Below, piece after piece: positions 9,601-14,731 of a stretch of DNA of 64,000 nucleotides. This stretch comes from Ascidiella aspersa (lineage: Eukaryota): NCBI GenBank assembly GCA_963924565.1, contig OZ004607.1:28334001-28398000 (forward strand), given 5' to 3'. A program made the translations under genes and the position numbers. Position 1 is the first letter of the stretch. Each line of letters begins with the position of its first letter. The notes beneath the pieces are model-generated. The model did not search any database. It worked only from the letters and a program-made list of their open reading frames with translations, and was not told the origin of the DNA.

Positions 9601-12600
9601 GTATTTAGGCAGGTTAATTTTTGAAAAACTATTTGGTAGGACGGAAATACGCAACCGGCGTGCCAGCATTTTTGGCAGGGTTTATTTCTTCTGGGCAAAT
9701 GCTGAATGGTAGACACTCACCTAACTGGCGAGTGCAAATTTTAATTTACCCCAATTCTGAGTACCCTAATAAAAAATGGCATTGGCTGCACTCGCATTGT
9801 ATTGCTACTAATACTACCACCTGGTATTGAAGGCAACATGAGCATCCCTACCAAACATGCACATATTATACCTGTTTGTCCCTAAATTTAATTTATCGCT
9901 AGGCTGCAGAAATAGATCATTTTACAGGTCCAAACTAAATTATATTGTGTACTGTTTGTTTAAGAAACAAGTTTATCTTCCTTTCTAGATTCCAGAAAAC
10001 GGTGTGTCACATTCCTTTAAAACCGCTAATGGTGTTACTCAAGTCAATATAAATTGCACAAATGGTGAAATTCCTACAGATTCAAGTGTTATACTGGTTA
10101 GTTTTGTTATACCTAAAAAAATATTTTCTAAACTTAAATGTGTGTGTTTACCATAATGGTAGAACAAATTGTCTCTCACTAAATAAAATAGTTTACTTTT
10201 TTCATTGTTTTTCATGTATGTTGAAATCACATTTGTTCTTTCAGTGGACGAATACAGCTGAAGAAGCCTTCATGGCTGTTGAACAATTTGAGATAACCAC
10301 ACTAACCAAGTTTATCTTTAGGAGAAAACACACTTGCGGTAATTGTCATCATGGCGTCATTATTTATTTAAAGTAGGACTACAGAAAATATTGAATTGAT
10401 AGGTTTGTAAGTCTCCACCATCATAATTTAAAAACAATAACAATTAAAGCCAGTCTTCTTATATGAGTGTAGCAGTTCAAAAAGTGCACCAGTAATGTGG
10501 TACCTTAGTATTTAAATTGAAGGAAACTTGTTGACTTTAATGGGCAATTAATTGAAGTAGTAGCATCCCCAGTATTTTCCTGACCTTAAAGTTCCGCATT
10601 TTTTGCGTTCAGACGTGCGAAAAAGTCGTGTGCACTGGGATGAGATCACCCACACCCCCTACATTATCACCCAGAGCAAACAACTGGAATGTCAGCACGG
10701 CAAAGACAGGAACAAGGCCAGCAACGAGAGACGAAGGCAGTCTACGCTTGCACTTAAGGTAAGCAAAATATTACACTAGTTCCATACCGGGTCATTTACA
10801 CCACGCTAAAGGTTCAGTTTCAAACGGCCTATAATGCAATAGAGCAGATAATGCCCACTTTAAAACATTGTCTCCGAAAGTTTAAAGATTTAAAATGTAA
10901 TCTAAAATTTCCCTGAAAAGTCACTGTTCGTGGGTTTTGCAACGTCAACACCAAATTAAACAGCAATTTGCTAAAATTTTAATTCATTTGTGTTAACCTT
11001 CTGCAAAATGTAAGACAAAACCCAGTTGAATGTTACACTAAAGTGACTAACCTATTTTTTTTGCAGTACGGCGACTTTTCCGAACTGCCACAAAAGAAGA
11101 AGCAAATTTCGAAAAAAATGGACTGCAAAGCGTTCATAACCATTTTTCAAGTCTGGAAGTTTCCCCAGCATCGGGTAAGGCGATTTTCGAGATGCTACTT
11201 TATACACCTCTGTTTTGTGCGTCATTGTCATTGCTGACTTTACGTGGCACTGCACTTCCTAAGGTCTAAGCTATCGCCTTTGGGTCTGCACGATGTTGCA
11301 TATAGGGACGTTCGATAATATCGGTTTGAGGCCAATATCTGATTCTAGTTTGTAGCAGTCTTTAACCTACAAAATGATTTTTTGAGACGTTGTCACGCCA
11401 ATATTAAATTATCGCGTTAGTGAAGTCATTCCAGGTAGTTTTATTTGCCTTGTGCTATAATTCGCAAACATGGGTTCGAGGCTATTTATAAATTCATTAA
11501 TTTAACAAAGACCTTTTATCAAGTTACACGCCCTTTATGTGTGGGTTACATGTCCCGACTAGACCACTGGAGTGTCCCCCAACTTGACATTTACTTACAT
11601 GGTGTGCGGGGCTTAATTTAATCGCGGCCTAGCCTAAAAATTGGCATTCAAATACTTGTCCTGATGCTGGTTTGACTTCTGCTCGCAGATTTACACGATG
11701 AGCGACTACCTCAAGACCAAAGCCAGTCGCGCCATTCGCAAGGCGCTGTCTGAAGGCGGCATCGACCTCGTTAAGGAAGATTTCTGCCAGGTTCGATTTC
11801 CCGCCAACGTCGACCACACTGGTCACGTGATCGGAGAGGTAAAATCCTTGCTCTGCTAAGTGCCAATTTCTGGTCGAGTCCTGTTAATAACATCTGTTGT
11901 TTGACTCCCAAGCAGGAATGTTGTACTTCAGATTTTAGTCCCGTATTTCTCATCCGTTTTTTGTTTGTTTCTAAACTAGATTCTTATCGAAGTGCGTTAG
12001 CACGTAAACGAAAGGTTAAAATAAAGTCGAAGGTTAAAATAAAGCCACAAAACCAAGTAAAGTAGAACTTGGGGTAAGGTACCGAAAATCCATCGCAGAC
12101 TCGCCGAATCTGTCGATCTATGATGCAAGCAGAGCAAGCCAGAAAAACAACTGGCCAGTGTGAAAAAAACTCCCCAGTGTGAAGTTGCTTGTACTAACAA
12201 AATGTGCAAGTATTGGCGCATGGTTGTTTCTCGACTCGCTCCTCTCTGAGCCTGCATAGCTCAGTTGGTAGAGCGACGGTCCCGGTTTGACCGGAGGTCG
12301 TGAGTTCGAACCTCACTGCAGGCCAGTTGTTTTTCTGGCTTGCTCTGCTTGCATCATAGATCGACAGATTCGGCGAGTCTGCGATGGCTTTTCGGTGTAC
12401 TATTGATACGGAAGCCGTAATCGTTGGTCATAAAGCAACTTCCGAGGGGCTAGATCACAGATGTTATTAAACACATATGTTTGTGTGTGTCTTTCATTGG
12501 GGTAAGGTGTAATACTTTGTATAAAAGAAACGCCGACACCGCATTCCTTTTGTATTTTCCGCATTCCTTTTTTTCTTTTTTTAGCTTATATTGTCCGAAC

Positions 12601-14731
12601 TTGTGGTAACGTTTAGATGTGGTCGGCAACCGCCGGTCCGCAACCGCCGGTCCGCGAGGAGTTTGTTACCGGTCCGTAGCAGGGTTGCCAGAATAAAATT
12701 TTGATTTAAACCCAAACCGTTCGTAAAAAGCCACAAAAAGTCAAAAACAATTAAATGTATTTTTATAGTGAAAACACAGTAACTCCCGTTTAAATATACT
12801 ACATGGTTGATTTGTATGATAAAAACAATCACAATTAGTATCAAGCACCCGTGAGGGTCAAAACAAACCGGCGTGTGTATAGCCATGTGAGTTACAGCAT
12901 GTTCACAACATCAAAAAATGCATTTTTTACTGTAAATTCAACTTATAGTAAGTACAATATCGAAAAAAGGCCATATGTAATGTTATCCTTTACTGAACAT
13001 TTGTTGTTTTTATGGACGGTCCGCGACAAAATTTTAGTTTTCAACCGATCCGCAAAGCAAAAAAGGTTGCCGACCCCTGGTTTAGATTATTCGGCCTTTT
13101 GTATTTTGGTATATAGTTTTTTAGGAAAGTCAACCATAAAAAGTTAAAGAATGCACTTTCCTAAAAAGTTCTAAATTATTGCGATACCACTATAACCAGG
13201 CGGCCGGCGTTTTACAAGCTGTCGATCCTCGAATTATCTCAAAAATCTACGAGATGGTGGGCAATGGAGTGGACAAACTTGAAGGCATCCAGACCGGTCT
13301 GCGCCAATTTGTCGTTCACGAGCTCTTCGAGGGACAGGCGCCACCCAGCGACACGAATCGTAGGTTTTTCCCGAACGCCAAAGACATCAGGAACCACTTG
13401 TACAAGGCCATTATGCGACTTGGAAAAAACCTACAGCATCGAATTGAATACGCCGAAGGTGGGACCACGAGCTATTTTTAGGGCGTGGTACGCTTTTTGT
13501 TATGTCCCAATTGTAGTTGGCCTGAATTTTATCTTTACACTGGTCGATAAATTTATTACCTTTAAAACTAAAATACAGAGCCCAAAGTAAAGATATCTAC
13601 ATTTGTATTTCACTATGAGAGCTTGTAAGCTGCTCCAAACCCGTGCTGTATACAAACCGGTTTATTTGCACAATCAGACCTTTTGCATTTTTTGTAGACA
13701 TAAGGATCAAGTTAAAAAAAGTTTTTTATTGTCATCTTTAAACTGATACACTTATTTTCATTTTTCGTTTATGTATGTCTGTAAGTCGCGTTTTTTAAAC
13801 CAAGTAATCTCCGGCGTAGTTCACACGCTCACTTTCTGGTAATGTCCGGCCTAAATATTTGTAAATCTAGTCCTAGTTTTTCTGTCAGTCATGTAAACAA
13901 GTAATTTTGTCCAAGTCAAGTCTTTAACAAATAGTAAAACGTTAACTATTAAAATTGTTCAAGTCGCCCGACTATGAGCAATAAATCATTTAAAAAATAA
14001 CCCAAAACGCAACATATAGCGTGCAAATTATTAATTAACAAGAAAAAAAGAGATAAATCACCCAATTTAAAAAAAAATGTTGAATGTAAACACTAAATTT
14101 CAATCCAATTCACTTAACTCGAGGATTAAAGTCCAAGTCAAGTCATTAGTTCAAACTACTTGAATGAGGCCAGAAAAGTCATTTAAAAACAGTGACTTCG
14201 TCATTACAACACTGTTAATCTCCCAAGTACACCTTTTTCTCATGGCTCTATGATTTTTTTCACGGGTTCTTCCTTTTTTCCATCGTTTGCACGTTCCGTT
14301 CACGCCAGGCAGTTCATTTTATAAAAAACAAAACACTCCGACATTTGTTCGAAGGCGTCGTTACCAAGATTCGTCACCAAGAGGAAGAAAGCGATGACGT
14401 CGTACAAGAGAACCTCGAAGAACAGGTGGAAGTTGTGGTGGTGGAGGGGACCGACTTCGACATCGGAGTAACGCTAGAGCACGACGGCGAGGAGCAGCCA
14501 GGGGATGAGGAAGGGGACATACACAAGATCGGAGACCTTCTTAACACGGTGCGCCACATATCCTACGGCGTTCAATCGCAACCCGCCCTGGCCCAGACCG
14601 AACGCGATCTGGCGAACATCATCGCCAATCTGTCCAACGCATCGTCCTACCAGAACGTGGAGTGCATTGATCACGGCAAACGTCTTGCTGCCATTTGCCA
14701 AGACCAACCCCCGCCCAAGCGTCCGAAGTGA
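6649..14731 (+). CDS. CARF: Calcium-responsive transcription factor (CaRF/ALS2CR8)-like protein with tandemly duplicated DNA-binding module, 13 exons, ~641 aa
   Basis: Phase-consistent GT-AG exons: 6649-6722, 7370-7514, 7857-7950, 8233-8360, 8520-8597, 8887-9051, 9989-10096, 10245-10338, 10613-10758, 11067-11174, 11689-11838, 13200-13458, 14355-14731. CaRF-like motifs: TPYIITQSKQLECQHG, KKMDCKAFITIFQVWKFPQHR, HTGH, DPRIISKIYEMVGNGV...LRQFVVHELF...RRFFPNAKDIRNHL. Exon 1 is the least certain; symbol denotes family, not proven orthology. Confidence 0.8.
9246..9823. mobile_element. Possible degenerate MITE in CaRF-like intron 6
   Basis: Weak terminal inverted similarity (CATGGTTGG / CCACCTG); repeated ACTCGC/GCGAGT motifs near both ends; CpG-richer than the surrounding intron; no TSD found. 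Confidence 0.35.
12081..12496 (+). mobile_element. tRNA-carrying insertion with 76-bp inverted repeats
   Basis: Inverted repeats 12081-12156 and 12321-12396 (1 mismatch); 12-bp direct repeat TTGGGGTAAGGT at 12069-12080 and 12497-12508 (candidate TSD). Confidence 0.75.
12250..12324 (+). ncRNA. tRNA-like Pol III unit with non-canonical anticodon arm
   Basis: Acceptor stem GCCTGCA/TGCAGGC; D arm GCTC-AGTTGGTA-GAGC (A box); T arm GTGAG-TTCGAAC-CTCAC (B box); T5 terminator at 12330-12334; anticodon arm CGGTC-CCGGTTT-GACCG lacks U33 and is shifted by one base on each side. Confidence 0.7.
12619..13079. mobile_element. hAT (Charlie/Buster-like) MITE
   Basis: Ends (ca)GTGGTCGGCAACC / GGTTGCCGACCCCTG; TSD GTTTAGAT (12611-12618, 13080-13087); related fragment in inverted orientation at ~40541-40603. 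Confidence 0.75.
13886..14214 (+). mobile_element. MITE with CAAGT/CAAGTCAAGT subterminal repeats
   Basis: CAG...CTG ends; repeated CAAGTC motifs; related copy in reverse orientation at ~23730-24152. Confidence 0.55.

Follow-up and report, generated by a model that had tools for sequence, protein, structure and literature searches.

An intron of a CaRF-like gene in Ascidiella aspersa (11839-13199 of the window, the whole stretch of 64,000 nucleotides analysed here) carries an insert that invites a simple question: what kind of mobile element is it, and how is it copied? The original prediction described a recent, mobile cassette in which a Pol III tRNA-like gene is wrapped in 76-bp inverted repeats, considered it neither an ordinary SINE nor an ordinary MITE, and saw a resemblance to twin-primed or Penelope-type retrotransposition.

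The insert and its repeat family

The landmarks named in that description are all present. Repeat comparison finds the 12-bp direct repeat TTGGGGTAAGGT at 12069-12080 and 12497-12508, and the inverted arms (12081-12156 and 12321-12396) are 76 nt each and 99% complementary, with one mismatch only, at 12089. A tRNA-like gene at 12250-12324 is called by ARAGORN and scores 54 bits against Rfam RF00005, while the 93-nt spacer, the 100-nt tail and the T5 at 12330-12334 are visible in the sequence. The assignment of the host gene is likewise borne out by PF15299, which is matched by a downstream exon (E 3.7e-15) and weakly by an upstream exon (E 0.055). The cassette itself, however, had to be given up: the supposed left inverted repeat is an A-primed arm whose length depends on the locus, and the real unit is a 348-bp tandem repeat. 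The window insert is a single copy, truncated and two-armed, of a non-coding repeat family with a 348-bp unit. It consists of an A arm of 76 nt and a B arm of 328 nt with 15 nt of filler between them, which makes its inverted repeat incidental. The filler at 12157-12171 joins two separately primed arms and is not an element spacer; we infer that it arose by end joining. At the other end, the element terminus (12499) overlaps the right target-site duplication (TSD) copy by 2-3 nt.

The 76-bp stem anticipated in the pre-mRNA is real as a predicted fold (z -18). Its supposed competition with the tRNA acceptor stem stands for the window copy, as a 4-nt overlap, but not as a family trait, the conserved anti-acceptor hairpin being a different, 9-bp element; a Pol III transcript begun at 12250 would exclude the left arm. 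As to empty alleles, one sequencing run covers the locus, its contigs break at the TSD, and the 15 joints listed of 47 include none that skips the insert. The same intron also holds, at 12620-12700 and 13000-13084, a second repeat of high copy number, whose inverted ends flank GGTTGCCGACC-type motifs.

Table 1. Features of the window copy; unit numbering starts at the 5' G of the tRNA-like domain
Feature	Position	Strand	Basis
Left TSD copy	12069..12080	+	Direct repeat; family TSD median 13 bp
A-primed arm, unit 147 to 72 inverted (the former left inverted repeat)	12081..12156	-	One difference from the family unit, at 12089
Filler at arm junction, short copies of adjacent element sequence	12157..12171	.	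Repeat comparison
B-primed arm, unit 271-348 then 1-250; 328 nt, short of a full unit	12172..12499	+	One difference (C37T), at 12286
Segment before the tRNA-like domain	12220..12249	+	3-4 differences between subfamilies; kept in the 140-bp family; fold predictions
tRNA-like domain with A and B boxes, 75 nt (standard tRNA + 2), non-coding loop	12250..12324	+	Identical over 1-74 in F1-F3; acceptor pairs 6 and 7 covary
Loop: palindromic CCGG (12282-12285) and three variable bases (12286-12288)	12282..12288	+	Predicted bulge-helix-bulge half; predicted cut 12287/12288
Anti-acceptor hairpin (unit 69-77 with 86-94), T5 (12330-12334) in its loop	12318..12343	+	Pairing probability about 1.0
Site A (unit 147-155), fixed priming site, then an 11-nt motif that recurs after site B	12396..12412	+	End mapping
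Segment resembling a Penelope-like 'tail', 5' side of conserved rod; likely RT-binding region	12398..12478	+	Profile and alignment; fold
Site B (unit 247-250), 3' end of the window copy	12496..12499	+	End mapping
Right TSD copy	12497..12508	+	Direct repeat

To place this copy within its family we searched the genome (308.6 Mb in 75 contigs). The insert gave at least 263 matches, many of them 348 bp apart, with 40 of 3129 candidates scored, and the unit length of 348 bp was taken from a 12-copy array. A 30-base junction string that is missing from the window copy has 301 exact matches, and a pattern for the tRNA-like head has 1293. The proposed check of copy number thus returned a dispersed family with at least 301 exact junction matches. 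Insertions consist of 1-12 head-to-tail units within target duplications of about 13 bp, and the long units, which span 346-355 bp, fall into subfamilies: F1 has a 348-bp unit; F2 has a 354-bp unit and is as young as F1, with arrays that are 99% alike; F3 has a unit of about 346 bp and is older. A fourth, also older subfamily, F4, has 139-141-bp units that often run into long-unit sequence, and its short spacer looks like a deletion derivative of the long unit. F4 arrays (L317, L327, L334, L335 and L342) close with a terminal tRNA-like domain followed by the T5 hairpin; in L327 and L342 the 3' acceptor strand of inner units mismatches its own 5' strand and that of the last unit matches, a pattern that a split pre-tRNA across several units would need.

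Insertion ends and Penelope-like elements

Thirty loci from the genome search and 60 stretches, out of 100 listed of the 301 junction matches, left 78 insertions of at least 300 nt after 13 overlapping or duplicated loci were removed, a sample biased toward long copies that span site B. In this set 117 of 127 outer ends lie at site A (144-160) or site B (243-258), windows that make up 9.5% of the unit. Moreover, the two sites are used together: the 49 two-armed F1 insertions comprise 39 with A and B, one with B and B, none with A and A, and nine with one unclassifiable end, so that 39 of the 40 classifiable ones are A+B, and F2 gave the same result in 5/5 classifiable two-armed copies (16 loci). 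Sorting assigned 29 of the 78 insertions to the one-armed class, among them L062, which is actually B+A. The inverted A arm has a locus-specific length, from 27 to >1000 nt. A direct repeat of at least 7 bp flanks 57 of the 78 insertions and is 13 bp long in 25 of these 57; the median duplication is 13 bp, and the targets are 76% AT. None of 110 inner ends falls at unit 348-3, the tRNA +1 position, where one further complex copy (L090) starts. Twelve of the 110 cluster at 145-156, where 3.8 would be expected (p 0.017 with 29 bins taken into account), an excess that includes A arms of one or two whole turns. Site B often bears an extra 4-base repeat of the end motif (L018, L047, L050, L052 and L065), and these additions resemble slippage or repeat addition by a telomerase-related RT.

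The claim that the insert is mobile, recent and neither an ordinary SINE nor an ordinary MITE is upheld by a dispersed young family with two fixed ends that are not A-rich and no fixed terminal inverted repeats, and the Penelope-type or twin-primed insertion gains support from the two fixed ends and the A+B arm pattern, which match the Penelope-like elements (PLEs) of the same genome. As alternative classes, a MITE or other terminal-inverted-repeat DNA transposon was rejected on the lack of fixed terminal inverted repeats abutting the TSD, and a tRNA-derived SINE was rejected because, for all its Pol III promoter boxes, the family neither starts at the tRNA 5' end nor ends in a single LINE-type or A-rich tail. 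What the genome holds is a tandem retroelement family of PLE type that is young, is primed at two sites and has kept its mock tRNA conserved.

Many GIY-YIG PLE families with minimal hammerheads are co-resident with this family. In all 22 distinct two-armed insertions of these PLEs one end is short and the other carries the tail, and their TSDs measure 12-16 bp in 18 of 20 rows. PLE-1 has a 37-nt tail; tails of the PLE-2 clade measure about 70-80 nt. PLE-2, as the candidate autonomous partner, encodes an 816-aa open frame with a GIY-YIG match and an RVT_1 match (below cut-off, E 3.4e-5); partner copies are 99-100% alike and hence young, and the PLE-2 TSD is 13 bp in all three insertions with a TSD call. 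At least six families of the PLE-2 clade (L109-L183) have tails of 70-80 nt, exceeding the described length of 30-40 bp, and their hammerheads carry an extra U after the core. Elsewhere in the assembly, two small contigs (C35 and C11) bear bacterial-looking genes that we take to be UvrC-like and Rho-like (L094 and L095), and these contigs are a probable contaminant or symbiont.

Sequence similarity between the family and these PLEs is weak. F2 positions 76-260 score against the PLE-2 end above 3000 of 3000 shuffles, in an alignment that starts directly behind the PLE-2 hammerhead and sets site A against the PLE-2 short end; scores as high occur in about 1% of 1114 genomic background windows. 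In the same comparison F3 is exceeded by 20 and F1 by 278 of the 3000 shuffles, and a second shuffle test of F1 against PLE-2 was not significant (93 of 2000 shuffles as high). F1 alone gave nothing above shuffles against the PLE-1 and PLE-2 ends, the part of the unit beyond site B has no significant similarity to PLE-2, and three matches, all of them family copies, were obtained when the genome was searched for PLEs in which the F1 motif precedes the CTGATGA string. A profile of six PLE tails, built with the element excluded, ranks F2, F3 and F1 as the top three of 148 targets, with weak E values of 0.11-0.78, on the correct strand and at unit 149-229. The segment between A and B thus appears to resemble PLE tails weakly.

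Mobilisation of the family by a PLE is likely, PLE-2 is the best partner family found, and the repeat family is classed as a non-autonomous derivative of PLEs with a new build. Work on an anole PLE in vitro describes two internal start sites, ATT cleavage and two-strand priming (PMC11167929), with which the ends of the family and of the PLEs agree, and the 'tail at one end' described for PLEs (PMC8557442) agrees with the PLEs of this genome. By such a mechanism a PLE dimer would nick both target strands about 13 bp apart, and a single RNA would be primed at both A and B. The arms would be truncated independently of each other, and their inner ends would then be joined; this part of the cycle is very probably correct. 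The A+B rule is valid for autonomous PLEs too, and so is no proof of a circular template.

Template, tRNA-like domain and a possible splicing route

Evidence on the template comes from sequence variants. Variants that are found, within one insertion, in every copy covering the position amount to 36 calls, and 11 of these are private to their locus. The 11 span 2-5 copies each, four extend across both arms, and one is present in 5/5 units. Similarly, 8 of 78 insertions carry a 2-nt deletion at 226-227, and in all four testable loci both arms have it. Another 206 variants are confined to some of the copies within their insertion, which we read as later mutation. Because private variants are common to all units of an insertion, these data point to a monomeric, likely circular, RNA template, and no recurring scar was found in the unit arrays. 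A unit-length ring read repeatedly is the simplest account, and a unit-length RNA circle read round up to 12 times is, on these genomic variants, the probable template.

How could such a ring be made? The tRNA-like domain is conserved: it shows no differences over positions 1-74 between F1, F2 and F3, against 33-38 in region 161-318. The A and B boxes of a Pol III promoter are in the sequence, with activity that is predicted only. Acceptor pairs 6 and 7 occur as C-G/T-A and as A-T/G-C, with compensation in F4, and the anticodon arm has an extra A27, joined in F1-F3 by G45. Counted over contexts, which are not independent events, loop positions 33-36 read CCGG in 218 of 260, with losses mostly of the CpG type, and positions 37-39 read CTT in 164, TAT in 76 and TTT in 10, a lineage-level change. 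One independent deep run lists differences at a level of 10% or more at loop positions 37 and 38 and none of that level at 33-36. A compensated loop, CTAG, was dropped as covariation evidence, as it occurs at a single locus only. The anti-acceptor hairpin is paired in 95.5% of cells over 20 copies, with one compensatory pair and covariation not above shuffles; for the rod, RNAalifold gives 49 pairs, 2 of them with double changes, and an unfavourable covariation term.

The search for a parent tRNA (63 of 43,783 genome candidates scored) led to Lys and Glu clusters with at most 47/75 identities. Contig C3 holds, at 31.37-31.62 Mb (L264-L293), a large tandem cluster of tRNA-Lys(TTT) and tRNA-Glu genes. 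A pattern scan of metagenomes returned a single, unrelated-looking tRNA-like match (L294, 790-870), which has D and T arms, is without an anticodon arm, and has 29 bases in common with the element head. In run X4, analysed over window positions 12257-12316, contigs with a summed depth of about 1400 link the T arm via a few letters back to the D arm; the joint amounts to a repeat of about 67 nt, which would arise by skipping across the paired acceptor strands of successive units.

Structure prediction suggests what the domain may do in tandem. A transcript from the tRNA-like domain to the next T5 is predicted to form one pre-tRNA whose intron is exactly one unit, framed by a perfect bulge-helix-bulge (BHB). 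Indeed, natural F1 and F2 dimers, taken from +1 to the second T5 and folded without constraints, already have in their minimum-energy structure a long-range acceptor stem, a D arm, both anticodon stems and the BHB, and the long-range acceptor has a probability of 0.97 in 13 of 16 natural dimers that end at the second T5. In dimers 16 nt longer this probability is at most 0.08 in 16 of 16: the acceptor between units n and n+1 forms only if the RNA ends at the second T5, because the 9-bp T5 hairpin takes the local acceptor strand. Since loop positions 1-4 are palindromic, a helix of 4 bp can form between the loop of one unit and that of the next, leaving a 3-nt bulge 3' of it on each strand. The predicted swapped-stem probability is 0.62 for CCGG and 0.01-0.24 for five other orders of the same bases, and a cut after the second bulge base in both units of the predicted fold yields exactly one unit. 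The split body beats two local cloverleaves by 19-21 kcal/mol, compared with 10.4 with shuffled spacers (0/40 each); half-swapping is possible in any tandem tRNA, as the bias of 10 kcal/mol in shuffles indicates. In the predicted ring the acceptor and D stems are absent (acceptor probability 0.0), and local acceptor stems in dimers are likewise at 0.0.

The predicted fold agrees with rules for the splicing endonuclease TSEN, having a 4-bp helix, 3-nt bulges 3' of the helix, a C-G proximal pair and 6 nt to the 5' cut. Rules described for Drosophila introns, namely a C-G proximal pair, 6 nt to the 5' cut and a 3-nt bulge (10.1101/497545), fit this geometry; according to the same source, strengthening the helix can impair splicing, and the helix here is all G-C. 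Eukaryotic TSEN can cut BHB motifs, according to reviews, and human cells are described as circularising long inserts from an engineered pre-tRNA with an archaeal BHB, a study in which most natural scaffolds worked poorly (10.64898/2026.10.12.758436). Several features fit less well. The splice sites are not at the canonical distance from the tRNA body: the extra A27, with G45 in F1-F3, puts the motif one step beyond the position set by the eukaryotic ruler. In the free fold, which lies 3.4 kcal/mol below the designed body, the T arm of unit n+1 pairs wrongly, and the F3 free fold departs from the F1/F2 pattern. The 4-bp helix has a probability of only 0.4-0.5 in consensus-like dimers and of at most 0.2 in 10 of 16. 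Finally, Pol III would have to pass a T5 and, in F1 and F2, a T4.

These elements can be assembled into a candidate cycle. Pol III would start at the tRNA-like domain of unit n, pass its own T5 and stop at the T5 of unit n+1. In unit n the 3' acceptor strand would be masked by the hairpin, and in unit n+1 the D arm by the leader, leaving the 5' half of n to pair with the 3' half of n+1; the two CCGG loops would form a 4-bp helix with 3-nt bulges. TSEN would then cut after nt 38, twice, and RtcB would close the 348-nt intron seamlessly. The circle would refold without a cloverleaf, shielding it from RNase P and Z, and would be read round up to 12 times as a unit-length template. The window copy, with its single tRNA-like domain, could not make a circle. 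The sequence of Pol III read-through, TSEN cutting and RtcB circularisation is, in this fold-based model, slightly favoured over its absence. Taken together, we propose, with a probability of roughly 55%, that the family is a self-perpetuating tRNA intron among animal retroelements: a mock tRNA would have replaced the Penelope hammerhead, host TSEN and RtcB would make the ring by treating the unit as a tRNA intron, and the RT/GIY-YIG protein of a PLE would copy this circular RNA monomer from two priming sites.

A ring could also be closed by another route, such as a nick by an anticodon nuclease in each local loop followed by RtcB, RNase Z/P with a ligase, or an undescribed ribozyme. Such a route would cover the monomer evidence and the conservation of the cloverleaf with no need for a shifted TSEN site, but it leaves unexplained both the palindromic CCGG with its variable 3-nt remainder and the predicted destruction of local cloverleaves by the flanks; in addition, Rfam contains no ribozyme match at E<=10 and an HDV-like match is at chance level. 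We regard it as unlikely. The HDV-like candidate, found with a descriptor, was rejected on that ground (one match, with matches in 19 of 60 shuffles), and the Rfam scans of the element returned only tRNA and a weak reverse-strand plastid model.

Alternatively, the same PLE-mobilised family might use a linear multimer made by read-through of arrays by Pol II or Pol III, in which the tRNA-like domain is a promoter only. It has been proposed that autonomous PLEs work from tandem transcripts left uncut (PMC11167929); possible sources are present in arrays of 7-12 units; and the two-arm rule needs no circle. The 11 insertion-private, all-unit variants, however, require a monomer read repeatedly at some step. 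Arrays copied in this way could only shorten, every unit has a T5, and a promoter would need neither a covarying acceptor stem nor a fixed anticodon arm, which makes this template unlikely.

An ordinary non-LTR retrozyme with a variant hammerhead (core 262-268 + 280-282, cut after 191) is very improbable. Such a hammerhead can be drawn for F1 with one core pair changed, and size and tandem layout agree with retrozymes (PMC7229834). Yet F2, which is young and active, and the older F3 differ at invariant core positions and lose stem I; stem II is absent; a match of this kind also arises in 5 of 60 shuffles; and the same descriptor locates both PLE hammerheads exactly. The hammerhead reading of F1 was therefore rejected on the subfamily comparison, and no canonical hammerhead was found on either strand of the unit. 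A cassette or MITE-like element with the 76-bp inverted repeats as structural ends around a tRNA gene, whose layout the window locus does have, is left with next to no chance by inverted arms of freely varying length, one-armed copies and units that continue as tandem arrays.

If correct, the self-perpetuating tRNA intron would mean that circular retro-templates can be made without a ribozyme, and engineered circRNA vectors based on tRNA splicing would have a counterpart in nature. It would be a selfish element that hijacks tRNA splicing, linking tRNA introns, tricRNAs and retrotransposons, and it would imply that a whole class has been missed by ribozyme-based retrozyme screens. Even without the TSEN step, the family would be a small, variant-marked reporter of the unresolved PLE cycle, with two fixed priming sites each used once, both arms from one template variant, and a monomer read repeatedly.

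Relation to known systems

Among the papers listed by a literature search, none describes a PLE-mobilised tRNA-like repeat or a TSEN-dependent retroelement. With tRNA-derived SINEs the family shares tRNA-derived internal A and B boxes, non-autonomous retrotransposition and TSDs; unlike them, it has a terminator right after the tRNA part, no preferential starts at +1, and two fixed 3' ends in place of an A-rich or LINE-derived tail. Schistosoma SM-alpha repeats are tandem, Pol III-transcribed and hammerhead-bearing, whereas this family is without a conserved hammerhead.

The likeness to non-LTR retrozymes is broader. These too are non-coding tandem units of a few hundred bases, related in sequence to PLE pseudo-LTRs, with a circular RNA closed by RtcB and mobilisation attributed to PLEs (PMC7229834; 10.64898/2026.07.22.740005); in the family the PLE similarity is weak, and closure and mobilisation are both predicted. 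Its units of 346-355 bp fall within the retrozyme size class of 150-450 bp tandem units. However, it lacks the conserved type I hammerhead of retrozymes, a tRNA-like module occupies the position that the hammerhead has in PLEs, and it has a predicted internal Pol III promoter where retrozymes are described as promoterless (PMC7761336).

Similarly, EN+ PLEs and derivatives such as MRC1 are described with two internal priming sites, a tail at one end, tandem and inverted arms, AT-rich targets and 12-15 bp duplications (PMC8557442; PMC11167929), all of which recur here. In contrast to them, the family has no ORF, a 98-nt tail and a tRNA-like cassette with a terminator, and its variants show both arms to come from one template variant.

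Finally, tricRNAs and BHB introns have the tRNA body with a bulge-helix-bulge at the anticodon loop and the release of a ring that are predicted for the family (10.1101/497545; HARBOR, 10.64898/2026.10.12.758436). On permuted and split tRNA genes, PMC3978253 cites in vitro work in which halves of tRNAs from tandem copies paired with each other. The spliced 'tRNA' of the family, however, would be non-coding, with its site one step off the canonical one, and its intron would hold a full permuted copy of the gene, regenerated by reverse transcription.
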